This document shows positions 3,427 through 19,943 of a stretch of 64,000 bases of DNA, piece by piece (position 1 is the stretch's first letter; each line of letters begins with the position of its first letter). Location: positions 31,882 to 95,881 of the forward strand of contig JBBREE010000001.1 in assembly GCA_038203255.1 (NCBI GenBank), given 5' to 3'. This stretch comes from Candidatus Moraniibacteriota bacterium (GTDB taxonomy: Bacteria > Patescibacteriota > Minisyncoccia > Moranbacterales > UBA2206). The notes beneath the pieces are model-generated. The model saw only the letters and a program-made list of their open reading frames with translations, was not told where the DNA came from and did not search any database. The position numbers and the translations under genes are program-made.

Positions 3427-4515
3427 TTATTTCTTTTTATCCGTTTTTTTAGGGGGGTCTGCGACGACAGGAGCGTCAACTGCCTCGTTAGTATTAAGAT
3501 TATCACCACTTGCACTTTTAGTGTTTTTAGTGAAAGTCACTTCCCGTACGGCACCGGCGTCCGTGCTTAAAGCTCCGACTTCTTGACCATTAAGTTTAAT
3601 GAAAGTGGCTTTGCCATTACCAGAACTAATCACTATTTTTTCTTTAGCCGTAAAAGATTGCACCGTTCCACTGAGCATTGTGCCAGAAAACGCCGAGCTT
3701 CCATCCGTTTCCACATTAAGCCACACCGGCCCCGGATCAACTCGCAAATCCAATTGCACACCTTGTTCTTGCGACGCCACGTCGCTCCCAGAAACCTCTG
3801 CCCCGCTTGTGTCAGCACTCGCTCCAGCATTTTCAGTTGGATAATCCGCTCTAACCACCACAGTTTCAGAAATTTCTTTTTTAAATTTATTCACCGCTCG
3901 CACTGTGATATTATTGAGCCCTGATTGCAAAGTCAGATTTTCTCCAAATTTTCCATCATCTCCAACTAGGATTGGTTGACCATTAATAAACAAGGCTGCC
4001 TCCTTATCAGTTGAACCTTTCACATAAACCGAGTTGCCTTTGACCTCGCTGTTGTTGTCCGGGCTCAAGATAAGTAAGTTGGGTGCACTAGCAAAAGAAT
4101 CCACTTCGCGATAAAGAAAAAACAAACCTAAAATGACCACGACTACGACAGCCACAGCTACAATTTTTTGCGGGGTGAAAACGAAAGAAGAAATGTTAAT
4201 CGGCTTGATTTTTTCCGTTTTAGGTTTAAAGTCTTTCTCTAGGTTTCTCTTAATGCCCTTTTCCTTGTCATAAAGGCGGATAAGGATAGTTTCATCCACT
4301 CCTAAAAAATCAGCGTAGCTTCGTAAAAATCCTTTAGTGTAAACATCCGCCGGCAATTTATCATAATTTCCTTCTTCTAGGCATTCTAAATAACCCACCT
4401 GAATTTTTGTGGCTTTGGAAACTTCCCCTAAAGAAATACGCTTATCACTTCGAAGCTTTCTCAGCTTTTCACCCAAAGTCATCGTCCCGACACTTTTTTT
4501 AGTAAAACCATTCAT
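3427..4515 (-). CDS. rodZ: RodZ-like cytoskeleton protein (HTH_XRE + TM + DUF4115-like C-terminal domain)
   Basis: N-terminal HTH LGEKLRKLRSDKRISLGEVSKATKIQVGYLECLEEG...YTKGFLRSYADFLGVD (RodZ signature), a single TM (VAVAVVVVVILGLFFLY), and a beta-rich C-terminal domain. Confidence 0.7.
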   Translation of the reverse strand: MNGFTKKSVGTMTLGEKLRKLRSDKRISLGEVSKATKIQVGYLECLEEGNYDKLPADVYTKGFLRSYADFLGVDETILIRLYDKEKGIKRNLEKDFKPKTEKIKPINISSFVFTPQKIVAVAVVVVVILGLFFLYREVDSFASAPNLLILSPDNNSEVKGNSVYVKGSTDKEAALFINGQPILVGDDGKFGENLTLQSGLNNITVRAVNKFKKEISETVVVRADYPTENAGASADTSGAEVSGSDVASQEQGVQLDLRVDPGPVWLNVETDGSSAFSGTMLSGTVQSFTAKEKIVISSGNGKATFIKLNGQEVGALSTDAGAVREVTFTKNTKSASGDNLNTNEAVDAPVVADPPKKTDKKK

Positions 4516-4524
4516 AGATAGAAT

Positions 4525-6963
4525 TTATAACTCCCACTTATCCCTCTTCTCTTGATCTCCAATCTTATCAGTATAACCAATGTTTTTTTCATCATTACCA
4601 ATATAAATTTCCCGTGGCTTAGCCCCATCAGCCGGCCCGACAATCCCCTGCTCCTCCAAAATATCCAGAAGTCTGGCCGCGCGCGCATATCCGATGCGCA
4701 AACGTCTTTGCAAAAAAGAGGCCGAGGCTTTTCTAGATTTCATAATCTCCAGTTTGGCCGCTGCCACCAGGGCGTCGTCCGATCCTTCCGTGGCACTATC
4801 TTTAAATTCCAAAATTTCTTTTTTTGATTTTTCCGTAACTTCTGCTGTTTCCTCTTTTTCTTTTATCCTTTGTCCGCAGATAAATTTCACCACGCGCTTC
4901 ACTTCCGATTCTCCCACAAAAACACCTTGGACTCTTCTAGGTTTTGGAGAGCTAGCTGAAAGATACAGCATATCTCCCTTACCCAAAAGTTTCTCCGCTC
5001 CGCCCATATCCAAAATTGTACGTGAATCAATCTGACTACCCACCTGAAAAGCAATTCGGGTAGTGATGTTGGCCTTAATAAGACCGGTAATCACTTCTAC
5101 GCTTGGACGCTGAGTAGAAACAATTAAGTGAATACCCACAGCTCGCGCCATCTGTGCCAGCCTCACCACAGCTCCCTCTACTTCCTTACCATGTGTTCCC
5201 ATGAGGTCAGCTAACTCATCAATCACAATAACAATGTATGGCAAATTTTTCAATTCCTCCTCTGTTGTTTCATTAGTTTCCGGGTCGGTTCTTTTTATCG
5301 TCTCGCCCGCTTTCATTTTTTCCCGATATGACCCAATGTCTCGCGAACCAGTGTCTTGCAATAAACGATAGCGTCTCTCCATTTCGCTGACCGCCCATTT
5401 TAAAGCGTTAATCACTTTGGAGTTTTCCACCACCACCTCCGTCAAGAGATGTGGGATACCATTATATAGAGAAAGTTCCACACGTTTAGGATCAACCATA
5501 ATAAATTTCAGATCTTCCGGCGAATTCTGATAAAGCAAAGTGGTGATGATAGAGTTTATCCCCACTGATTTTCCAGTCCCGGTCGCTCCGGCAATCATAA
5601 GATGAGGCATCTTGCTGAGATCGGCAAAAATATTTTCTCCGCCCACATCCTCTCCTAGCGCCACCATCAGGTTAGAACTTCTTTTTCTAAATTGCGAATC
5701 CTCCACCATATCTCGCAGTCTCACTACCATAGAATCCTTATTAGGGATTTCAATCCCAATGAGAGATTGTCCCGGGATAGGTGCCTCGATTCTGATTGGA
5801 TGAGCCGCCAAGGCTAAAGCCAAATCATTTTGCAAGGAAAGTATCTTGGAAATCTTCACCCCGACCGCCGGACGAAAACTATATTGCGTCACAGCCGGAC
5901 CGGTTTTGGCTGTCCCTCTCTCCACTTGAATCCCAAAATCTTTTAAAGTTTTTTCAATAATGGCAAAATTCTTTTCGATGTCTCCGCCCTTGGCCACGCC
6001 AAAACTTTTTTCCAAAAGATCTGCCGGAGGCAAAACCCATTTTGAACCTTTTAACATTTTGGCATATCCAGTTTCCTCGTCTTTTTTGTCATGCCTCGTG
6101 TGATCATTAATGTCTAAAGATTTCCTTTCCATCACTATTCTATTCGCATCCTCCTCGGCATTATGCTCAAATTTATCCGACACTTCCGGCGAAACAAATT
6201 GATCGCGCCCTTCGACAAATTTGATGTGAGAAATGTTTTCCTCTACTTGCGCGTCTTCGGCCGATATACACTCCGCGACTGAAATTCCTTCTGTACCGCT
6301 AGTGACATCAGCCTGAATTTCAGTCTCGTCTTTCTCTTCTGGCATATCACCCCCTTCATTGGACTCTAGTAAATCTTCAGCCTCTTGCGTTTCATTTTTT
6401 CCCTTTTTAAGTTTCATAAAAAAATGCGCGATGGAAAAATCAAAAATCAAAATTATTCCTAAAAACATCATTGCTAAAATAATAACAAAACTCCCAGCAC
6501 TACCCAGATATTTCACCAACGGATAATCGATAGCATAACCCAAATATCCGCCACCTTGCCCGGAAGAAGCCGCTTTCAACATTTTAGACGGATCGAAAAA
6601 CCAATGAGTCAACCCAACAAAGCTAAAAAGAGTAATGAAAAGACCAGCGGATTTAGTTACATAAAAAAAAGTTTCTTTTCTAAAAAGAAGAATTATTCCG
6701 CCCCCAATCAGAAAAAACGGGAAGATGAATTTCACCAGCCCCACTGAGGTAGCAATCAGACTATTTAAAAGTGCGCCCAGAGTCCCCGCTTTACCAAAAA
6801 AACCCAGAACTAAAATCAAAGCCAGTGCAAAAAGAAGAACAGCTACGATACTGCGCTTGACGTCTCCGGCCAAACTTCTTTTCGGCCGGCTCTCCATTTC
6901 TTCTTCCTCAATTTCTATTGCCTCCTGCGGTTTTCTTTTTTTTGTATATTTTTTTCTAGCCAT
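4525..6963 (-). CDS. ftsK: DNA translocase FtsK/SpoIIIE
   Basis: N-terminal TM helices, an acidic linker, a motor domain with Walker A GATGTGKSVGINS and Walker B IVIVIDELADL, and a C-terminal gamma winged helix (SASFLQRRLRIGYARAARLLDILEE). The ORF-track start at 6969 is TTG; the first ATG is at 6963. Confidence 0.9.
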   Translation of the reverse strand: MARKKYTKKRKPQEAIEIEEEEMESRPKRSLAGDVKRSIVAVLLFALALILVLGFFGKAGTLGALLNSLIATSVGLVKFIFPFFLIGGGIILLFRKETFFYVTKSAGLFITLFSFVGLTHWFFDPSKMLKAASSGQGGGYLGYAIDYPLVKYLGSAGSFVIILAMMFLGIILIFDFSIAHFFMKLKKGKNETQEAEDLLESNEGGDMPEEKDETEIQADVTSGTEGISVAECISAEDAQVEENISHIKFVEGRDQFVSPEVSDKFEHNAEEDANRIVMERKSLDINDHTRHDKKDEETGYAKMLKGSKWVLPPADLLEKSFGVAKGGDIEKNFAIIEKTLKDFGIQVERGTAKTGPAVTQYSFRPAVGVKISKILSLQNDLALALAAHPIRIEAPIPGQSLIGIEIPNKDSMVVRLRDMVEDSQFRKRSSNLMVALGEDVGGENIFADLSKMPHLMIAGATGTGKSVGINSIITTLLYQNSPEDLKFIMVDPKRVELSLYNGIPHLLTEVVVENSKVINALKWAVSEMERRYRLLQDTGSRDIGSYREKMKAGETIKRTDPETNETTEEELKNLPYIVIVIDELADLMGTHGKEVEGAVVRLAQMARAVGIHLIVSTQRPSVEVITGLIKANITTRIAFQVGSQIDSRTILDMGGAEKLLGKGDMLYLSASSPKPRRVQGVFVGESEVKRVVKFICGQRIKEKEETAEVTEKSKKEILEFKDSATEGSDDALVAAAKLEIMKSRKASASFLQRRLRIGYARAARLLDILEEQGIVGPADGAKPREIYIGNDEKNIGYTDKIGDQEKRDKWEL

Positions 6964-7481: not shown

Positions 7482-8870
7482 TCAAGGGGTGTTTTCTTCT
7501 CGGTTATCTATCTTTATCCCAGGAGGAACAAGGCCTGCCCTCTCCCATCTTTTAAATTGATCCCTAGAAACATATTTGATATTTTTTGACCTCGTCCTAA
7601 CTCGCAATAAAAAGTTATCCACAATATGCTTTTTTATTTCTCCTTTTTCCAGCCCGCTCGCCTCACTTGCTTCCTGACATATTAAATCCAAATATTTTTC
7701 ATTAAAAGAGCCAAACAGGCGGGTGTAGAGCGACAACTTTTGAATTCTTTTATAGATCTTGTTTTGCGCAAGACCAGTTTCATTCTTATTATTAGTCAAA
7801 ACAACTTGGACTTCAAAATTTCTCGTGATAGTCATTTTCCCTTCTTCTCCATTCTTTGGAACTTTAATCTCTCCAGAAAATTTAGCCACTTTAAAATTTT
7901 CATTGGATGATTCGTTTTTTTCAAACGGCACTGAATTAATTCCCTGTTCTCTAAGTTTACCTCGCAGTGATTCATCTTCTTCATTACCAAAAAGATTAAC
8001 ATTCTCAAAGACAATTTTACCAGTCTCAAAATTATCCCTTAACGTTTCAGCCATGAATAAAAATAATTTGCTTGCTTCTTTTCCATTAGCAACTTCAAAC
8101 TTAAATCCTATTCCATCCCGTATTCTCTCTTCCATTGAAAAATCGGGCTTTTTAGCCAGCTTAGCTGTTACGCTTTCTTGAGTTTTTCCACGAAAACTAA
8201 ATTTAGCATCAGTCCATGAATTTTCGCCTGTCATTATACCAACGCGATTCCAATCTTCATCTTCTTCCTTGACAGTATGAAACCTCACGATGCCATCCTT
8301 GTCTTCTTTAAAAAGCTGCTCTGATAAATATTTACTTTCATTGAATAAATCCCCGAATTCCTCTGCGTCATATTCACGCTCGGCTATCATTAGACTAAAA
8401 AGAGCGCAGTAGCTCGGGCTCAATCCCAGATTGTCTCCTTTCTTCAAGAGAGTGGCTTTGTCTAGATATTTTTCCAAATCATGTAGGTTGTTAAATCCAT
8501 CCAAGTTTTCAATTTCACGCGGGAAAGCAGCTTTAGGATCAGCGCCAGAAACCAAGAATTTTTTGTAAAAATCTTTAGCCTCTCGCCAATATCTAGAAAT
8601 ATCAGGCAATTTATTTTCTAAGTCCTTTTTATCAATCTGCATGTTTTTGGAAATAACTTCCATTTTTTCATCACTGGTCAAGCCCACCGGGATAGAAAAC
8701 AAATCAATCGGCGTTATATTTTCTCCTTCTACTGAAAGGCCCCTGTCGAAAAGCACCTCCTTAGCAACTTCCGGTTTTTGGACCTTGGTGTAAAATTCCT
8801 TTTTTAGTCCAGAAGACATATCCTTAAATCCAAATTCTCCCATAAATTTAAAATAATTTAACTTATACAT
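7482..8870 (-). CDS. hypothetical 462-aa protein; C-terminal half may carry a divergent RelA/SpoT-like nucleotidyltransferase fold (tentative)
   Basis: RGKTQESVTAKLAKK...ERIRDGIGFKFEV resembles the R.K..S...K / D.xG.R strands of synthetase-type nucleotidyltransferases. ITRNFEVQVVLTN...AQNKIYK resembles ExQIRT...YK. No GYxSxH motif was seen, so the assignment is weak. Confidence 0.4.
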   Translation of the reverse strand: MYKLNYFKFMGEFGFKDMSSGLKKEFYTKVQKPEVAKEVLFDRGLSVEGENITPIDLFSIPVGLTSDEKMEVISKNMQIDKKDLENKLPDISRYWREAKDFYKKFLVSGADPKAAFPREIENLDGFNNLHDLEKYLDKATLLKKGDNLGLSPSYCALFSLMIAEREYDAEEFGDLFNESKYLSEQLFKEDKDGIVRFHTVKEEDEDWNRVGIMTGENSWTDAKFSFRGKTQESVTAKLAKKPDFSMEERIRDGIGFKFEVANGKEASKLFLFMAETLRDNFETGKIVFENVNLFGNEEDESLRGKLREQGINSVPFEKNESSNENFKVAKFSGEIKVPKNGEEGKMTITRNFEVQVVLTNNKNETGLAQNKIYKRIQKLSLYTRLFGSFNEKYLDLICQEASEASGLEKGEIKKHIVDNFLLRVRTRSKNIKYVSRDQFKRWERAGLVPPGIKIDNREENTP

Positions 8871-8999
8871 TTATTATAGCACATAGAAAGACTGACTCTT
8901 GCCTTTTTTTATAGATTTGCTATAATCAATTTGTTTTGTAGATTCTAAATAGTCCTTGACCGGGCTATTTAAAAAACAACAAAATTAACAACTGAATAT

Positions 9000-9071
9000 T
9001 CCGCGATAGCTCAATGGTAGAGCAATTGACTGTTAATCAATTGGTTCCAGGTTCGAGTCCTGGTCGCGGAG
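9000..9071 (+). tRNA. tRNA-Asn (GTT)
   Basis: Cloverleaf: acceptor TCCGCGA/TCGCGGA, D-stem GCTC/GAGC, anticodon stem ATTGA/TCAAT with loop CTGTTAA (anticodon GTT), T-arm CCAGG-TTCGAGT-CCTGG, discriminator G. CCA is not encoded. Confidence 0.85.
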
Positions 9072-9081
9072 CTAGTGCAAT

Positions 9082-9108
9082 TTAAGGCTTTTTAAAGCCT
9101 TTTTTTGT
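9082..9108 (+). terminator. rho-independent terminator after tRNA-Asn
   Basis: aaggcttttt aaagcctt hairpin followed by TTTTTT. Confidence 0.6.
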
Positions 9109-9213
9109 TGACAATCCTTGACTAAAAATAAATAGTGCGTTAATCTATATTGTTGCATTTATAAATTGAATAAAGCAATTTTAAAGTACCTTTTCAACTA
9201 TTGGAGGCATGCC

Positions 9214-10257
9214 ATGGATTTTACTAATGAACTTGAAAAAGCCAGGAAGATGGGTTGCGGAGACATCCGCAAGATATACCTTAATTTTATAGAAGTGTTA
9301 AGAGATTATATCAAAATCAGAAGTGTGTCGCTTCCCTTTCCATCAAGCAACCTAGTTCTTATTGGTGGAGGCTCTGGAATATCAACGGTCGGGAGATCTC
9401 TTTATGAAGTAGGCATCTCAAATTTTACATCTATAGCAAGCGTCATGGATGTTGGTGGTGGGAGTGGGGTCATTCAAGATAGATTTTGCATTCCTCACAT
9501 GAATGATGTAATGCAACACCTCATAAATATGAATCCCAGAAAAAATAAGTTTTCTGAATTTATGTCGCTACGAACATCTGACGAATGGAAGCAGGATGGA
9601 TATATCATGATAGCGGCGGCAGTTAACCTATTTGGCGTAGAAAGAGGAATTGACCTTATCGGTTGTCTATTAGAAAATGACCACAGAGCGCTTCCTGTTA
9701 CAAGCCAGCCGTGTGAGCCGATTTTTACTTACCGTGGCAGAGAGTATAAAACGTATGAATTCGCCTTTCTTCCCGATAAAATTGGCGTGGCGGATCATGT
9801 CAAACTTAATGTTTCAGCGAGCCTTCTGCCATCTGTGAGTAAATCTATACAAAACGCGAATGTAGCTGTAATTGGTCCGGGAGATATTCATTTTTCTATT
9901 CTTCCTCCAATGCTCGTGCCAGGAATGTATGAGGCCTTATGTCATGTAAGAAAGATAATTCTTATTGCTAATTTGACGGCGCGTAGAATTGACATCCCTG
10001 GCTTTACGCTCAAGGACTATATTGCCTTTTGGAAGAAAAAGTTACCACAAAAACCGAAATGCAATATTTTGGTTAATTCATTTCAAAACATCAATCAAGA
10101 AGATCCTCCCCTGAAAGATGACATTCACGGCGACTACTACATGGATTGCCACATTCATCGAGCTAACATCGCTGGACACAGCTTAAGCAGAAATAAACAA
10201 CCCCTTCATGATAAACATGCACTGGGGAAATCGCTTAAGTATATTCTAAATATATAG
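9214..10257 (+). CDS. CofD/YvcK (UPF0052) family protein, divergent
   Basis: LIGGGSGISTVGRSL...IASVMDVGGGSGVIQDRF aligns with the YvcK/CofD motifs (GGGTGLS..R.L / DDGGSSG). A later VAVIGPGDIHFSILPPMLVPGM matches the (V/I)IGPGSLYTS(I/V)LPNLLVPG motif. The ORF-track start at 9166 is TTG; an ATG at 9214 follows a GGAGG ribosome-binding site. Confidence 0.65.
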   Translation: MDFTNELEKARKMGCGDIRKIYLNFIEVLRDYIKIRSVSLPFPSSNLVLIGGGSGISTVGRSLYEVGISNFTSIASVMDVGGGSGVIQDRFCIPHMNDVMQHLINMNPRKNKFSEFMSLRTSDEWKQDGYIMIAAAVNLFGVERGIDLIGCLLENDHRALPVTSQPCEPIFTYRGREYKTYEFAFLPDKIGVADHVKLNVSASLLPSVSKSIQNANVAVIGPGDIHFSILPPMLVPGMYEALCHVRKIILIANLTARRIDIPGFTLKDYIAFWKKKLPQKPKCNILVNSFQNINQEDPPLKDDIHGDYYMDCHIHRANIAGHSLSRNKQPLHDKHALGKSLKYILNI

Positions 10258-10374
10258 TCCAGAAATAAAATTATCTAAACCCCTTACGCTGCCAAAGGAC
10301 AGCATAGGGGTTTTCTTTTTTGTATAAAAAAAGCGAGCTGGTGATTCAGCTCGCTTACTCGAAATTAATTTCAC

Positions 10375-11415
10375 TTAACGCTCTCTAGGTATCCAATAAA
10401 AAGTATACGAGGTATCCTCTATTGGATATTTGGTGAAATGCTTAAACTCCAAAGCGTTTATCATGATCGGCAGATACTCTAGCGGCTGTTCCTCTATTCG
10501 ATATTCCGGAACGATTGCTATAGAATACTTCCCAGTCCCTTTGGGAGAAGTAAGAATTGAAGCGCCATGCTGAGGAAGTGTATTGTTCCACGGCTTTGGA
10601 CAAAAACGATCTTTTTCCGTGAATGCAGCATCGATGTATAGGGATGTCCCAAAGATGTTATCAAAAAACCCCAACTCTTTTCGCATACGCCCAATCTTAT
10701 TTGCTTTCGCAACTACCCGACACGCTTCATCCCAAATTTCTGATGAGATTTTATTTCTAATCCAACTCCAGTTTTTAGCTTGTCGCTTACTATAAAGCAA
10801 ATCGAAAACTTCGCGAGGTATTGAATCATATGGCAACGATGTAGCTATTGCCAGTATTTCATCCATAGAGGATGCAGAAATATCAGAGCTATCAACAATA
10901 ACATCATAATCAGGAATCGCAATGATTCTTATGAAGTCAAAATGTTGCTCGGCCAAATTTTTCATTATCTCATGTTTTCGGACAATATCTCTATATGCCC
11001 AGCCAAGAGCATGAAAATGAGGCACCTCATCCCCAATAATGAGATCTATTCCTGGTTCATAATGATGTTTGATTTTCCTGTTGAGAATATCAAACCACCA
11101 GATTCCCCATAGATCACCTTTTCGTGGATAATTCAGCCTCTCGCGTAATTTCATAGTTGAAAGAGCCCCTCCGGAACATCCCCACGTCAGTCCAATTGGG
11201 ATTCTTGTCTCACTACTAATGGCCGTTTCGATGGAATTACGAATCTTTTGCTCTTCGAGCTCAGATATCGCTGTACGTGAATGCCTTTTGAGAATTCTTA
11301 TAATGGAGCTAGTTATATCCTTATCCCTCTTGGGGTTGTACCCGTCCATTTTTGCATCAATTGCCTGATTCATATTGTCAATTTGATCACTCAATTTTGT
11401 TACTAAATGCTCCAT
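10375..11415 (-). CDS. hypothetical 346-aa protein (no recognisable family), convergent with the CofD-like gene
   Basis: Long ORF with a GGAG ribosome-binding site before the ATG at 11415 (the ORF-track start at 11427 is GTG). Motifs GLTWGCSGGALS and PHFHALGW; no match recognised. Confidence 0.5.
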   Translation of the reverse strand: MEHLVTKLSDQIDNMNQAIDAKMDGYNPKRDKDITSSIIRILKRHSRTAISELEEQKIRNSIETAISSETRIPIGLTWGCSGGALSTMKLRERLNYPRKGDLWGIWWFDILNRKIKHHYEPGIDLIIGDEVPHFHALGWAYRDIVRKHEIMKNLAEQHFDFIRIIAIPDYDVIVDSSDISASSMDEILAIATSLPYDSIPREVFDLLYSKRQAKNWSWIRNKISSEIWDEACRVVAKANKIGRMRKELGFFDNIFGTSLYIDAAFTEKDRFCPKPWNNTLPQHGASILTSPKGTGKYSIAIVPEYRIEEQPLEYLPIMINALEFKHFTKYPIEDTSYTFYWIPRER

Positions 11416-11630
11416 ATTTATCTCCACGGTTTAGGATTTAGATGCATTTATATATTTATTAAAGAACAAGACATCGTACAATTAATATCACTTTATGTCA
11501 ATTTTTTTAATTTCTGGGAAGCTCTTATGTATAGAATTCCCAGAGATGTTTTATTTCAGCATTCTTGAAGCTATAAACATTAAGTGTTATAGTTATAATA
11601 TTATTTATTATTTTTTTATCATTCACCCAT

Positions 11631-12473
11631 ATGCCAAACTTCAAATTATCTTTCGTTATTGAAAAAAAACTCTTTGCTTTTTTGGATACCCCGGAAGATT
11701 CACTGATTGATTCCGTCCATTTAATTACTGAAAAATATGCGGACAAATATATTGTTAAAAACATAGAACTTCGCAATGATTCCTGCCCCGAAGAAGCTTA
11801 CCAAAAAATTATAGACCGCTTCAAGCCAGAAATAGAACAATTGCAAAAAGATGGATTTGATTTCACCTTGCACGCCGCGCGAGCTATCCAAGACTCGGAC
11901 AATCTAGATTATAAAATTCTTACTGTTTTGAAAAAAGATGTCGCTCTGGCAGAAACTCTCGGGATAGCAACTATAGTCACCCATGCTTCATTTAGCGTAC
12001 GCTCTCCCGAAGGAAAAAACTACTATTCCATAATGCACCTTTTGCCAGAATTGGATACTCTTAGCAAAGAAACAGGAGTAACAATAGCCATAGAAAACAT
12101 TTCACTTAAAAACGGCATCCTCCAAAATACGAACGATCATTTTTTCGTCCTAGATTTTATTAATAAGAATAATCTCCAGAATCTTGGAATCGCAATTGAT
12201 TTTGGCCATGCTCTTTCCTGTGGATTCAGTACTGATTACATTCTCAATGTCATTGAAAAAGCTAAGGAAAAACTTTTTCACATTCATGCGCATGAAACTA
12301 CTTTCGGTGAAGACTTGCATGCACCTCTTGCTGGAAAACTTGACTGGGGAAAAATTCTTCAGTCTTTAGAAGGCATAACTTATTCCGGAGTTTTCGTGCT
12401 AGAAATGCGCTCCCCTAGCCTTCCTAGTAGCCTAGAATATTTGCAAAGCATTGACGCCACATTTAAAAACTAG
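11631..12473 (+). CDS. sugar phosphate isomerase/epimerase (xylose isomerase-like TIM barrel / AP endonuclease 2 family)
   Basis: Motifs IVTHAS, IAIEN, IDFGHA and HIHAHE, typical metal-ligand strands of this TIM-barrel family. Confidence 0.65.
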   Translation: MPNFKLSFVIEKKLFAFLDTPEDSLIDSVHLITEKYADKYIVKNIELRNDSCPEEAYQKIIDRFKPEIEQLQKDGFDFTLHAARAIQDSDNLDYKILTVLKKDVALAETLGIATIVTHASFSVRSPEGKNYYSIMHLLPELDTLSKETGVTIAIENISLKNGILQNTNDHFFVLDFINKNNLQNLGIAIDFGHALSCGFSTDYILNVIEKAKEKLFHIHAHETTFGEDLHAPLAGKLDWGKILQSLEGITYSGVFVLEMRSPSLPSSLEYLQSIDATFKN

Positions 12474-12758
12474 CCTTTCACTCCTACAGTAAAAGCTAAT
12501 AAATCTAACTCCAATTTCATCTCTGCTATATTCAAGTGGCGTAACATATCCGTTAGGGGGAGCCACGAAAAATTCAAAAAAGACTAACCTAAACGGTATG
12601 GTCTTTTTTTCGTCTCGTGGCGCCGCCATCACTGAAAGCCTTTTATGTTAATCTTTTTTGTAAGTTTTTCGTGGTCGCGCGACGAACGATAGTGAGTTTT
12701 GCGCGACAACATTTTTGAGTGTTGTATAATAAAAACATAACCCAAAAACAAAATCATT

Positions 12759-12959: not shown

Positions 12960-13127
12960 ATGGAAAACAAAAAAGAAACAAGAAAATTAACCAAGACTGG
13001 GCGTGGGAGTATGTATGTGATTTTACCCAAAGAATTGATTGCTCACTTTGGCTGGCGCGAAAAACAAAAACTGACGGTGGAAAAAGTGAAGGGTGGGATT
13101 TTGATTAAGGATTGGAGGAAGAGATAA
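12960..13127 (+). CDS. AbrB/MazE/SpoVT-like small DNA-binding protein (55 aa), paralog copy 1
   Basis: MENKKETRKLTKTGRGSMYVILPKELIAHFGWREKQKLTVEKVKGGILIKDWRKR shows the swapped-hairpin pattern (TRKxTKxGGSxxVxLPKExxxxLG). A second copy lies at 19384-19551. Confidence 0.55.
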   Translation: MENKKETRKLTKTGRGSMYVILPKELIAHFGWREKQKLTVEKVKGGILIKDWRKR

Positions 13128-13193
13128 AAAAAGCCTCCAGTCCGCATTGCGAACCTTTGGCTTCTTGTGAAAAGAAAAAATGTTTTGAAATTA

Positions 13194-15002: not shown

Positions 15003-15038
15003 CATCAAGGTTCGAACTTCTTCCATCGCGCGGAGCCA
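15003..15038. repeat. 36-nt repeat catcaaggttcgaacttcttccatcgcgcggagcca, copy 1
   Basis: Identical 36-mer at 17656-17691. It ends in GGAGCCA, resembling a tRNA 3' end. Confidence 0.7.
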
Positions 15039-15138: not shown

Positions 15139-16203
15139 TTAATTCTTTTTGATCCTTTGGCGTTTCAGCGCTCCTTCAATAATTTTATCCAAAAAAACCG
15201 GAAAGCTCATCCCGTACGCAGCAGCGGCTTGGGGCGCAAGGCTAGTAGCGGTCATCCCAGGAATAGTGTTAATTTCAAGAAAATATAATTTATCATCATC
15301 TGCACTCCAAATGAAATCAGCTCGGGCCAGATCAATACACCCGACAGCCTTGAAAATTTTGACTGCATAACGTTGAATTTTTCTTTTAACGTCATCCGAA
15401 ATTTCGGCTGGACAGACTTCTTCCGATCCGCCTGTTTCATATTTCGCCCGATAATCAAACCACCCAGAAACTTTAGGGATAATTTCAATAACCGGAAGCG
15501 CCTTCGGAGCTTTGTCTCCTATTACTGCCACTGTAAGTTCTCTGCCTTTCACAAATTGTTCCAAAAGAACTTCGTTGCCATATTTTAAAGCCTCCTCTAT
15601 TCCAGAAATTAATTTTTCCTTAGAGGTAACCAAGCTTATCCCAACTGAAGATCCAAGCTCTGTTGGTTTTATAACGATTGGAAAATTTAATTTAGCAATT
15701 ATACTCACCGCGCTATATTTTTTATCCCGAGAAATCACTTCATCTTTAGCAATTTTTAATCCCGATGCCTTAGCAATAATTTTAGTCTTGCGTTTATGCA
15801 TAGCCAAAGCGCTAGCCAACGTTCCTGAAAAAACATACGGCAATCCGAGCATTTCCAGTGCGCCTTGCAACTTTCCATCCTCCCCAAAAGTTCCGTGGAT
15901 AATTGGCAAAACCAAATCAATTGGTGGAAATTTTTCCGGAAATTTATTCCTGTCTTCAAAAGAACTCCCGTTCCCCACTCCGCCCTCTCGACTAGCTCCT
16001 TCCAAATTTTCATCTAAATATTTTTGTCCCTCCTCACCCACTAGCCAATGTCCGGACTTAGTAATGGCAATAGGGATAATCTCATACTTATTCTTATCAA
16101 GCGCACTCATGACTTGATTAGCTGATCTCAAAGAAACTTCGTGTTCACCGGATTGTCCGCCAAAGATAACCGCTAATTGTTTTTTTGCGATAGTTTTTTT
16201 CAT
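15139..16203 (-). CDS. ddl: D-alanine--D-alanine ligase
   Basis: N-terminus KKQLAVIFGGQSGEHEVSLRSA plus the ATP-grasp body (EQFVKGRELTVAVIG...). Canonical Ddl. Confidence 0.9.
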   Translation of the reverse strand: MKKTIAKKQLAVIFGGQSGEHEVSLRSANQVMSALDKNKYEIIPIAITKSGHWLVGEEGQKYLDENLEGASREGGVGNGSSFEDRNKFPEKFPPIDLVLPIIHGTFGEDGKLQGALEMLGLPYVFSGTLASALAMHKRKTKIIAKASGLKIAKDEVISRDKKYSAVSIIAKLNFPIVIKPTELGSSVGISLVTSKEKLISGIEEALKYGNEVLLEQFVKGRELTVAVIGDKAPKALPVIEIIPKVSGWFDYRAKYETGGSEEVCPAEISDDVKRKIQRYAVKIFKAVGCIDLARADFIWSADDDKLYFLEINTIPGMTATSLAPQAAAAYGMSFPVFLDKIIEGALKRQRIKKN

Positions 16204-16342
16204 AAAATTAAAGTTAATATTTATACAAATGGTAGCTTGAATTGTTAATTATTGCAACAATATAACAGATTTTACTAAAAAAATAAAGCGGCTATCGAAA
16301 AACGACAACCGCCTGCTTCTGCCTTTGATGGAAAATTTTCCA

Positions 16343-17655: not shown

Positions 17656-17711
17656 CATCAAGGTTCGAACTTCTTCCATCGCGCGGAGCCACAAAAAACT
17701 CAAAAAAGATT
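17656..17711. repeat. 36-nt repeat copy 2 (17656-17691), followed by a 20-nt right arm caaaaaactcaaaaaagatt that also occurs near 12574-12593
   Basis: The left arm is identical to 15003-15038. The right arm ggagccac[a/g]aaaaa[c/t]tcaaaaaaga[t/c]t is shared with 12566-12595. Confidence 0.7.
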
Positions 17712-17812: not shown

Positions 17813-18895
17813 ATGCTAACTTACTCTAATTTAAACGCCAGACAACAATCTATCATAGACTTCGCAAAAGAAAAGCCGTCATTTCAAACGAAGGATGTTT
17901 TTTTGGCTGTCAAAGGAAAATTCGATGTCTCCCGCCTAACGGTTGTTCGCGATCTTTCATTTTTGGAAAAAAATGATGTCTTGAAAAAGCAAGGAGCCGG
18001 AAGAGCCGTGACTTATGCAATAACAAAAAAATATCTATCTCTCGAAAAAATTGACGTAGAAAAATATTTCTCAATTCCTTCTTCAAAAAGAAAGGCCGAC
18101 CCGCTATTCAACAATGATGTTTTTTCCATCTTAAACGAAAATCTTTTTTCAGAAGAAGAAATGAAAAAACTAAATTTAGCCAACGAAAAATATCTAAAAG
18201 CAAAAAATAAATTAGAAAAAGAAAGCCCCACGATTCTCAGAAAAGAATGGCAACGCTTAGTGATAGAACTATCCTGGAAATCATCTGAAATCGAAGGAAA
18301 CACCTACTCTCTTTTGGAAACCGAAGCGCTTCTTCGTGAGATGCGTTTTGCAAAAGGGAAAGATAGAGCAGAGGCGCAAATGATACTCAATCACAAAAAT
18401 TCCCTTGATTTTATCTTGTCCGACAAAAATTATTTTAAAAATATCAACCTTGATAAAATCAAAAAAATTCATGAGCTACTGACGGAAAATATAGACATCA
18501 AAAAAGATTTCCGAGATCATCCGGTCGGGATTACCGGAACAATCTATCGGCCTCTTCCAAGAAAAAAAGACATTACTTCGGCTATGGAAAAATTGAACGA
18601 CACTTTCTCACAAATTTCAAATCCTTTTGTGAAAGCCTTTGTTTCTTTGATTATGATTGCCTACATACAACCGTTCGAGGACGGAAACAAACGCACTTCG
18701 CGAATCATTGCCAACGCCATTTTGCACTCCCATGATAAATCGATTTTGTCCTATCGTGATGTCGATTCTATTGAATACAAAAAGGCTATGATATTGTTTT
18801 ATGAGAAAAATAACATTTCCTATGTAAAAGAAATATTCATTGCTCAAGTTGAATTTGCAACAGATAATTATTTTTCACAAAGTCAAAGTGGATGA
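17813..18895 (+). CDS. Fic-family protein with N-terminal winged-helix/HTH and a degenerate Fic motif
   Basis: The Fic core motif reads IQPFEDGNKRTSR; the canonical form is HPFx(D/E)GNGRxxR. An S-S-E-I-E-G-N segment matches the (S/T)xxxE(G/N) inhibitory-helix motif, and an N-terminal HTH is present. Confidence 0.7.
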   Translation: MLTYSNLNARQQSIIDFAKEKPSFQTKDVFLAVKGKFDVSRLTVVRDLSFLEKNDVLKKQGAGRAVTYAITKKYLSLEKIDVEKYFSIPSSKRKADPLFNNDVFSILNENLFSEEEMKKLNLANEKYLKAKNKLEKESPTILRKEWQRLVIELSWKSSEIEGNTYSLLETEALLREMRFAKGKDRAEAQMILNHKNSLDFILSDKNYFKNINLDKIKKIHELLTENIDIKKDFRDHPVGITGTIYRPLPRKKDITSAMEKLNDTFSQISNPFVKAFVSLIMIAYIQPFEDGNKRTSRIIANAILHSHDKSILSYRDVDSIEYKKAMILFYEKNNISYVKEIFIAQVEFATDNYFSQSQSG

Positions 18896-19383: not shown

Positions 19384-19551
19384 ATGCAAAAGCAAAAAGA
19401 AACTCGAAAACTTACTAGAAACGGCGGCGGAACGATGTATGTTTCTTTGCCGAAAGAATTTGTGAAAGATTTAGGATGGCGTGAACGGCAAAAATTAGTT
19501 GTTGAAAGAGTGAAGAGTGGGATTTTGATTAAGGATTGGAGGAAAAGATAA
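19384..19551 (+). CDS. AbrB/MazE/SpoVT-like small DNA-binding protein (55 aa), paralog copy 2
   Basis: MQKQKETRKLTRNGGGTMYVSLPKEFVKDLGWRERQKLVVERVKSGILIKDWRKR. About 65% identical to the copy at 12960 and shares the identical C-terminus ILIKDWRKR. Confidence 0.55.
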   Translation: MQKQKETRKLTRNGGGTMYVSLPKEFVKDLGWRERQKLVVERVKSGILIKDWRKR

Positions 19552-19666: not shown

Positions 19667-19846
19667 TTAACAAATAGTGTGTTGAATTAATATAAAGAGT
19701 GGTACGAAAGCGAGCATAACTTTAGCTATATAGTTATCAATATTTCTGAATCCAAATGATATTCTTTTAATCATTTTAATCTTGGTGTGTACTCCTTCGG
19801 TAAAAGCATTGGTAGAATAGTTGTCGAAATAATTTAGAATATTTTC
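19667..19846 (-). mobile_element. ISL3-family transposase C-terminal remnant (about 59 aa, no N-terminus)
   Basis: Minus-strand frame ENILNYFDNYSTNAFTEGVHTKIKMIKRISFGFRNIDNYIAKVMLAFVPLFILIQHTIC* matches the conserved ISL3 C-terminus (TNAxxEGxNNKIKxIKRxxYGFRNFxNF...). It has no start codon and no upstream transposase body. Confidence 0.6.
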
Positions 19847-19849
19847 TTT

Positions 19850-19943
19850 CCATCACCTGATTGGATGATCTTAAGGAAACTTCATGCTCACCAGATTGTC
19901 CGCCAAAGATGACAGCCAGTTGTTTTTTATTATTATTTTTCAT
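19850..19943 (-). pseudogene. duplicated 5' fragment of ddl fused out of frame to the IS remnant
   Basis: atgaaaaataataataaaaaacaactggctgtcatctttggcggacaatctggtgagcatgaagtttcc encodes MKNNNKKQLAVIFGGQSGEHEVS, nearly identical to the N-terminus of ddl at 16203. It runs into the transposase fragment in a +1 frame. Confidence 0.65.

Follow-up and report, generated by a model that had tools for sequence, protein, structure and literature searches.

A rare three-gene cassette of CofD-like, IsnA-like and TIM-barrel proteins beside a tRNA-Asn gene of Candidatus Moraniibacteriota

Organization of the locus

A 64,000-nucleotide stretch of Candidatus Moraniibacteriota DNA (assembly GCA_038203255.1, contig JBBREE010000001.1, positions 31,882 to 95,881 of the forward strand; hereafter the window, in whose numbering all window coordinates are given) has been analysed around two convergent genes that follow a tRNA-Asn gene. 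The first-pass annotation of these genes, made from the sequence alone, had presented them as a possible two-gene module composed of a divergent CofD/YvcK-family protein and a protein of 346 amino acids (aa) of unknown family. The pair is conserved together, and the unit also includes the next gene, encoding a triose-phosphate isomerase (TIM)-barrel protein at 11631-12473; the conserved unit is thus formed by three genes, not two, and is a rare accessory cassette. With moderate confidence, the region 9214-12473 is interpreted as a cassette of three enzymes (an IsnA-superfamily, a dedicated CofD-like and a metal-dependent TIM-barrel enzyme) that would make or modify a small metabolite. Homology and fold could be assigned to each protein, the trio is kept despite reordering and unrelated flanks, and the pairing of a CofD-like with an IsnA-superfamily gene recurs in much more distant relatives.

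Two maximal open reading frames (ORFs), 9166-10257 on the plus strand and 10375-11427 on the minus strand, were found where they had been annotated, converging with a spacing of 117 bp; their place after the tRNA-Asn gene and the motifs quoted from their translations were likewise confirmed. The features of the locus are as follows:

9000..9072, plus strand: tRNA-Asn (GTT), detected by ARAGORN and by the Rfam tRNA model (75.4 bits); left landmark, outside the cassette
9084-9101, plus strand: intrinsic-terminator-like hairpin 3' of tRNA-Asn (AAGGCTTTTTAAAGCCTT, then TTTTTGTT), with a T-run to 9107
9108..9136, plus strand: promoter-like site 5' of the CofD-like gene, TTGACA-17-AATAGT, 10/12 consensus matches
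9214..10257, plus strand: divergent gene of the CofD/YvcK superfamily (PF01933), 347 aa
10331..10356, between the convergent genes: strong, G+C-rich hairpin of 10 bp with a T-run called on the minus strand
10375..11415, minus strand: remote, isonitrile-synthase-like gene of the IsnA/PvcA/Dit1 superfamily, 346 aa
11416..11630: intergenic stretch between the divergent IsnA-like and TIM-barrel genes, each of which has a promoter-like site here (minus strand, 11501-11473, and plus strand, 11565-11593, respectively)
11631..12473, plus strand: gene of a metal enzyme of the xylose-isomerase-like TIM-barrel type (AP_endonuc_2), 280 aa, which completes the cassette

The maximal CofD-like ORF begins with TTG at 9166, and the ATG at 9214 is preferred as the likely start because of a GGAGG at 9203-9207, the 347 aa of the public annotation (P0081) and the 344-348 aa of the homologues. 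The IsnA-like partner starts with the ATG at 11415, giving 346 aa (P0001).

The CofD-like protein

CofD moves a phospho-group from a guanosine-diphospho donor onto a hydroxyl acceptor (LPPG:Fo 2-phospho-L-lactate transferase), whereas YvcK binds uridine diphosphate (UDP)-N-acetylglucosamine, and YvcK-type relatives are UDP-sugar binders, not proven transferases. To our knowledge, only one catalytic reaction, in F420 biosynthesis, is firmly established for the CofD/YvcK fold.

The translation of 9214-10257 contains the motifs LIGGGSGISTVGRSL, MDVGGGSGV and VIGPGDIHFSILPPMLVPG, as read directly, and matches PF01933 of Pfam with 81.4 bits (E 9e-23, cutoff 30), residues 64-304 being aligned with profile positions 2-250 of 290. 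Shared with the CofD/YvcK proteins are the N-terminal GGGxG loop, the D-x-GG-x-G segment, the GPG(D/S) motif and the YvcK-type length. The best NCBIfam match, the YvcK subfamily model TIGR01826, reaches 82.1 bits against a curated cutoff of 196, and the CofD equivalog TIGR01819 only 9.9 bits against 257, which leaves the protein outside both. The nearest solved structures are the uncharacterised UPF0052/YvcK-type entries 2hzb and 2o2z (E ~1e-13). Alignment of the subgroup revealed an N-terminal extension of about 45 aa and the motifs GGGSGxxxVGRSL, GPGDVHFSxLP, ANLTARxIDIP and NxQLxHDE; ordinary YvcK-like sequences in the same alignment display GGGSGxxxLLSGL, GPGDLYTS and NxMTKxGET.

By these sequence criteria the gene is a divergent member of the CofD/YvcK family and not a housekeeping YvcK, as the first-pass annotation had suggested. 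The distinction follows from (i) scores far under the YvcK and CofD cutoffs; (ii) the subgroup motifs and the additional N-terminus; (iii) a rare clade that, unlike CofD and YvcK, is consistently linked to an IsnA-superfamily partner; (iv) absence from the tRNA-Asn locus of the closest genome (L012, see below). No rapZ- or whiA-type neighbours were seen around the gene, and F420 genes (cofC/E/G/H) were not noticed in general scans of the window genes, no dedicated genome-wide test having been made.

The IsnA-like protein

The 346-aa protein (10375-11415), whose translation contains GLTWGCSGGALS and PHFHALGW, had been described as lacking a recognisable domain. This holds for single-sequence scans, which gave nothing in Pfam, NCBIfam, PADLOC or PHROGs. 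It does not hold for profile and fold methods, which place the protein in the IsnA/PvcA superfamily, and the statement that its family is unknown has to be replaced by that of a remote IsnA/PvcA/Dit1 homologue.

Close relatives form five clusters among 5.8 billion proteins, and a profile search of 1.84 billion cluster representatives (50% identity) recovered 76 of them with E <= 1e-3. The family profile of 49 sequences matched the PDB sequences of PIsnA (9dhm, 9dh4) and PvcA (3e59) with E 3e-8 to 8e-8, while hhalign against five canonical PF05141 proteins from related loci gave a probability of 98.6% (E 1.3e-15) over 287 columns, approximately the full length. The relationship is reciprocal: the family hidden Markov model (HMM) finds canonical PF05141 proteins with E 1e-11 to 1e-17, and the canonical PF05141 HMM finds many members of the IsnA-like family with E 1e-10 to 1e-17. 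Distant members reach only 15-19.5 bits, below threshold, on the Pfam model PF05141 (DIT1_PvcA) itself.

Modelling by AlphaFold with five close homologues only was unusable, with a predicted local distance difference test score (pLDDT) of 48.6, whereas the 49-sequence alignment gave a pLDDT of 95.5 and a predicted template-modelling score of 0.93. Foldseek comparison of the latter model with the PDB returned PIsnA and PvcA at the top (E 1e-10 to 3e-8, template-modelling scores 0.5-0.65, 310-345 columns). On profile and model evidence the protein therefore belongs, as a very distant branch with the PvcA fold, to the IsnA/PvcA/Dit1 superfamily, being only 12-16% identical to the known family (PF05141; 3e59, 9dh4, 9dhm).

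Of the residues invariant in the canonical proteins compared, the family keeps (canonical numbering) K84, P90, G93, E94, Y112, G115, E123, K298, R301, P315, H317 and G318, the equivalents in the window protein being K89, P97, G100, D101, Y119, G122, E130, K268, R270, P281, H283 and G284. Such a core speaks for an active enzyme of related chemistry, whose substrates or reaction may differ in detail. In canonical IsnA/PvcA enzymes the amino nitrogen of tyrosine or tryptophan is joined to a carbon from ribulose-5-phosphate (PMC7949033; PMC7345447). In contrast to the classical isnA-isnB and pvcA-pvcB arrangements, the present cassette has no IsnB/PvcB and includes CofD-like and TIM-barrel partners instead.

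About 20 IsnA-like members (among P0029-P0073), as well as the canonical PF05141 protein encoded at L024 3123-4751, carry an N-terminal extension of about 200-250 aa. These extensions match nothing in Pfam and resemble neither the CofD-like nor the TIM-barrel protein.

The TIM-barrel protein

The product of 11631-12473 passes the threshold of PF01261 (77 bits, threshold 31.1), and its nearest solved relative is MJ1311 (E 1.6e-10). The gene was located beside the pair in L001-L005, L008 and L017-L021, with a 36-aa edge match in L006. The candidate metal ligands E155, D190, H193, H217/H219 and E258 do not vary among the four lineages aligned and line up with the MJ1311 motifs; the Glu/Asp/His/Glu ligand positions of the PF01261 enzymes (ketose 3-epimerases, IolO, UlaE-type L-ribulose-5-phosphate 3-epimerase, CbiR, MJ1311) are thus kept. 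The equivalog models (IolO, D-psicose 3-epimerase, CbiR, UlaE-type) score 31-36 bits against cutoffs of 105-317, and since all lie below cutoff, no specific function is assigned.

Conservation of the cassette

All contigs with a close relative of the 346-aa protein and enough flanking sequence carry the CofD-like gene, and nearly all carry the TIM-barrel gene. These loci, the window included, represent five lineages, with 54-74% protein identity and about 66-70% DNA identity, and show three gene orders:

Window, L001-L004, L005, L017-L022: CofD-like gene forward, IsnA-like gene reverse, TIM-barrel gene forward
L008: IsnA-like gene forward, CofD-like gene reverse, TIM-barrel gene reverse
L006: IsnA-like gene forward, CofD-like gene reverse, TIM-barrel gene forward, the third gene being represented only by a 36-aa match where the contig ends (L007 stops short of this gene)

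The three genes are adjacent in four lineages (the window, L001-4/L017-22, L005 and L008), the fifth being L006/L007. The genes on either side of the cassette are unrelated from one lineage to the next, and the window contains no homologues of them. A block composed of a 199-aa gene and the trio is 98.8-99.98% identical between contigs, yet its flanks differ.

The cassette is rare. The contig scan of the genome collection with the close-family alignment found no relative, the metagenome scan found three loci only, two of them too short for context, and viral contigs, phage records and plasmid records yielded no relatives.

Two observations concern the borders of the block. In L002 an IS200/IS605 Y1 transposase gene (4223-4657) adjoins the 199-aa orphan and the trio. 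L018 and L019 are 99.98% identical from within the 199-aa gene onward and unrelated upstream of a break at L018:2229, a pattern due either to rearrangement around the cassette at strain level or to a chimeric assembly there.

Pairing in distant relatives and other neighbourhoods

CofD-like relatives of much lower identity also adjoin IsnA-superfamily genes. In L023 (31% identity) the order is PF05141, CofD-like, PF05141 (partial), and in L024 (36% identity) the CofD-like gene is followed by a PF05141 gene and then by a convergent PF05141 gene of 542 aa; these neighbours score 59-78 bits in Pfam. Since CofD-like proteins of 31-36% identity stand beside canonical PF05141 genes, the pairing is old. 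L025 and L026 (29% identity) were excluded as evidence, since in the 420-aa orphan next to their CofD-like gene no more than two weak motifs of IsnA-like type occur, in the correct order.

Distant members of the IsnA-like family adjoin canonical PF05141 genes in L009, L011 and L016. In L010 (1107-5286) such a member seems to share an operon with genes for a PhyH-HEAT dioxygenase, two orphan proteins and a sulfotransferase (PF03567), which looks like a different, maybe sulfated, isonitrile-type cluster. Canonical PF05141 genes and PhyH-type dioxygenases are classic partners in isonitrile clusters, and the neighbours in L009, L010, L011 and L016 are a secondary-metabolism context. HAD phosphatases recur in L005, L009 and L025, and they flank the 420-aa orphan in L025/L026.

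Proposed function

On sequence grounds each protein of the cassette belongs to a known superfamily and none passes a specific functional model. The IsnA-like clade is invisible to Pfam, and for its linkage to a CofD-like gene no paper joining CofD and isonitrile was found in the searchable literature.

In the proposed scheme the TIM-barrel enzyme would isomerise or epimerise a sugar phosphate and in this way provide, or act on, a 2-ketose phosphate. With that keto-sugar phosphate the IsnA-like enzyme would condense an amine, probably an amino acid, to give an isonitrile, a formamide or a related N-C product. The CofD-like enzyme would transfer a phospho-group from a nucleotide-activated donor to a hydroxyl of the substrate or product, or might bind a nucleotide-linked intermediate. 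These reactions are proposed from the homologies and would make up a three-step pathway to a small molecule, its order and product being tentative. The conserved glycine-rich loops of the CofD-like protein suggest that a nucleotide-linked ligand is handled, and the sugar-isomerase-type TIM barrel together with the recurrent HAD phosphatases fits a ketose-phosphate co-substrate.

A more specific and clearly more tentative reading, which we regard as possible, holds that the CofD-like/IsnA-like pair represents an unrecognised, anciently diverged pathway of uncultured bacteria, in which IsnA-type amine/ketose-phosphate chemistry would be coupled to a CofD-type phosphodiester-forming step. The product might be a phosphodiester- or nucleotide-linked isonitrile or formamide, possibly cofactor-like or envelope-modifying. 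Such a pathway, if true, would add to F420 synthesis a second defined enzymatic role of the YvcK/CofD-like "UPF0052" fold, and a CofD-like subgroup genetically locked to IsnA-type enzymes offers a testable handle on that second activity. Isonitrile synthases open the way to natural products that are bioactive and bind metals, and a deep branch invisible to Pfam widens the sequence space for genome mining. With three genes in 3.3 kb, the cassette is small enough for direct heterologous expression.

Several points weigh against the interpretation as a metabolite-forming cassette of three enzymes. PF05141 (gathering threshold 26.4 bits) gives no match to the window protein even at E <= 1. The canonical-invariant GFPFK motif (P75-F76-K77) and the residues T85, R87 and D91 of KTxRxxPD are not kept; W-G-C-S-G-G and K-x3-N-x-P-R-x-G-D-W partly take their places in the window protein, and with the canonical residues gone, the substrates or the reaction may differ from those of isonitrile formation. 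No Fe(II)/2-oxoglutarate dioxygenase neighbour is present in the window, in L001-L008 or in L017-L022, a PhyH neighbour being confined to the distant relative L010. For yeast Dit1, a member of the family, an isocyanide synthase activity is reported to be lacking (PMC7345447). Separate promoter-like sites precede the genes of the trio, which do not form a single operon. The genomic context covers about a dozen contigs, mostly short. The role of the CofD-like protein as transferase or binder is proposed by analogy, and the activities of all three enzymes are predicted from homology.

The best-surviving alternative is a narrower version of the same interpretation: a bona fide isonitrile cluster, in which the 346-aa enzyme makes an alpha-isocyano acid from tyrosine or tryptophan and ribulose-5-phosphate, like IsnA/PvcA, while the other two proteins serve in precursor supply or tailoring. 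The fold and core residues shared with PIsnA and PvcA speak for it, as do the relatives that cluster with canonical PF05141 genes and a PhyH dioxygenase. The replaced GFPFK, T/R and D residues and the lack of an Fe(II)/2-oxoglutarate dioxygenase at the locus oppose it; moreover, the family member stands beside a canonical IsnA in L009, L011 and L016, suggesting a non-redundant, different function, and Dit1 indicates that the superfamily is not confined to isonitrile formation (PMC7345447). This alternative is on balance doubtful.

According to a second alternative the CofD-like protein would regulate cell-envelope synthesis as a UDP-sugar binder of YvcK type, the target of the trio being an amino-sugar or peptidoglycan precursor and no secondary metabolite being made. 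The best NCBIfam match of the protein is indeed the YvcK subfamily, its nearest solved structures are YvcK-type UPF0052 proteins, and ddl and an M15 D-Ala-D-Ala peptidase gene lie 3-5 kb away in the window. However, the score does not reach half the YvcK cutoff, and the motifs for nucleotide binding depart from those of ordinary YvcK-like sequences. The proximity of ddl and M15 is seen in no other locus, and the trio, itself rare, is missing from this locus in the nearest genome. The envelope alternative is considered improbable.

Chromosomal setting

The window represents ordinary chromosome, with recA, ndk, rodZ-like, ftsK, pyrF, ddl, RND efflux and P-type ATPase genes, and the G+C content of the cassette region (0.36-0.40) is the same as in the remainder. 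The nearest genome in the species-representative collection, L012 (CAIKZD010000014, AlinenLipids_bin-5474; FtsK 72% identical), keeps the order M50 peptidase, ndk, recA, rodZ-like, ftsK, small ORF, tRNA-Asn, and the tRNA region of the window (8896-9109) is 83% identical to it at the DNA level. In L012 a Fic-domain gene (7565-8620) follows directly after tRNA-Asn and the trio is absent. The comparison with a close relative that the first-pass annotation recommended gives an absence at this locus: the synteny from FtsK to tRNA-Asn is kept without the cassette. The 346-aa protein belongs to no common housekeeping family, and the pair is not syntenic in all relatives.

A Fic/DOC gene of the window (17813-18895, plus strand), 44% identical to the L012 Fic protein, marks the far edge of an extra segment of 8.7 kb, from 9110 to about 17800, which contains the trio, a MazE/AbrB-like ORF, pyrF, a phosphoribosyltransferase-like gene, ddl, an M15 peptidase gene and a gene for a CxxCxxCC protein. 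This segment is not a clean island, because there is no integrase and no G+C shift, housekeeping genes lie inside, and the only repeats are degenerate tRNA-3'-like ones (12559-12583, 15003-15038 and 17656-17709), with no clear att repeat.

The place after the tRNA gene had been regarded as typical of cargo. Flanks that vary between near-identical contigs lend this slight support; the missing integrase, att repeat and G+C deviation, and the presence of pyrF and ddl in the extra segment, do not. The corresponding explanation, that the trio is cargo of a mobile element integrated at tRNA-Asn, with a defence or toxin role, could draw on its position directly 3' of the tRNA, its absence from the closest genome, the flanks that differ between 99%-identical blocks, the transposase beside the block in L002 and the tRNA-3'-end-like repeats downstream. 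It is opposed by the lack of PADLOC or PHROGs matches and of relatives in viral contigs, phage or plasmid records, by the absence of an integrase among the annotated neighbours and of a G+C shift, and by the housekeeping content of the segment that L012 lacks, and is very improbable. Chance adjacency of a housekeeping YvcK gene and an unrelated orphan, to which the separate promoter-like sites and mixed gene orientation might point, is hardly credible given an adjacency kept in five lineages despite rearrangement and unrelated flanks, and recurring with PF05141 genes at 31-36% CofD-like identity.

Control signals and minor features

The hairpin at 10331-10356 is probably the terminator of both convergent genes, and an inverted repeat occurs at the equivalent CofD-like/IsnA-like intergenic position in L018 and L019. 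The promoter-like sites of the cassette are consensus matches only, their regional count being not above the shuffled expectation. An AT-rich motif resembling TATATTGTTGCATTTATAAA is common to 9147-9175 (5' of the CofD-like gene), 11436-11464 (the divergent region between the IsnA-like and TIM-barrel genes) and, inverted, 16245-16264 (5' of ddl); a similar sequence, ATTGTTGCATT, is located 3' of tRNA-Asn in L012. The motif is probably a common promoter element, not a cassette-specific operator.

On the left of tRNA-Asn, a 462-aa gene (7482-8870, minus strand) has no Pfam match and only weak similarity (19 bits) to TIGR04552/TIGR04562. At the syntenic position L012 has a 157-aa orphan in its place, so that the gene is a second variable one next to tRNA-Asn. 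PADLOC gave no match at E <= 1 for this protein or for the three cassette proteins.

On the right, a 36-nt exact direct repeat (CATCAAGGTTCGAACTTCTTCCATCGCGCGGAGCCA) at 15003-15038 and 17656-17691 resembles a degenerate tRNA 3' end (GGTTCGAA...GGAGCCA), and its right-hand continuation (17685-17709) has a 92% copy at 12559-12583, just downstream of the TIM-barrel gene. Neither ARAGORN nor Rfam detected a tRNA at the repeat sites, which could be remnants of recombination at a tRNA. Two MazE/AbrB-like paralogues of 55 aa (12962-13129 and 19384-19551, both on the plus strand) are 72% identical over 197 nt of DNA and score 23.6 bits on PF04014, slightly under its cutoff. Behind the second, the 5' end of ddl recurs in truncated form (19776-19943, minus strand; 83% over 78 nt versus 16108-16185), and these copies indicate local duplication or rearrangement.

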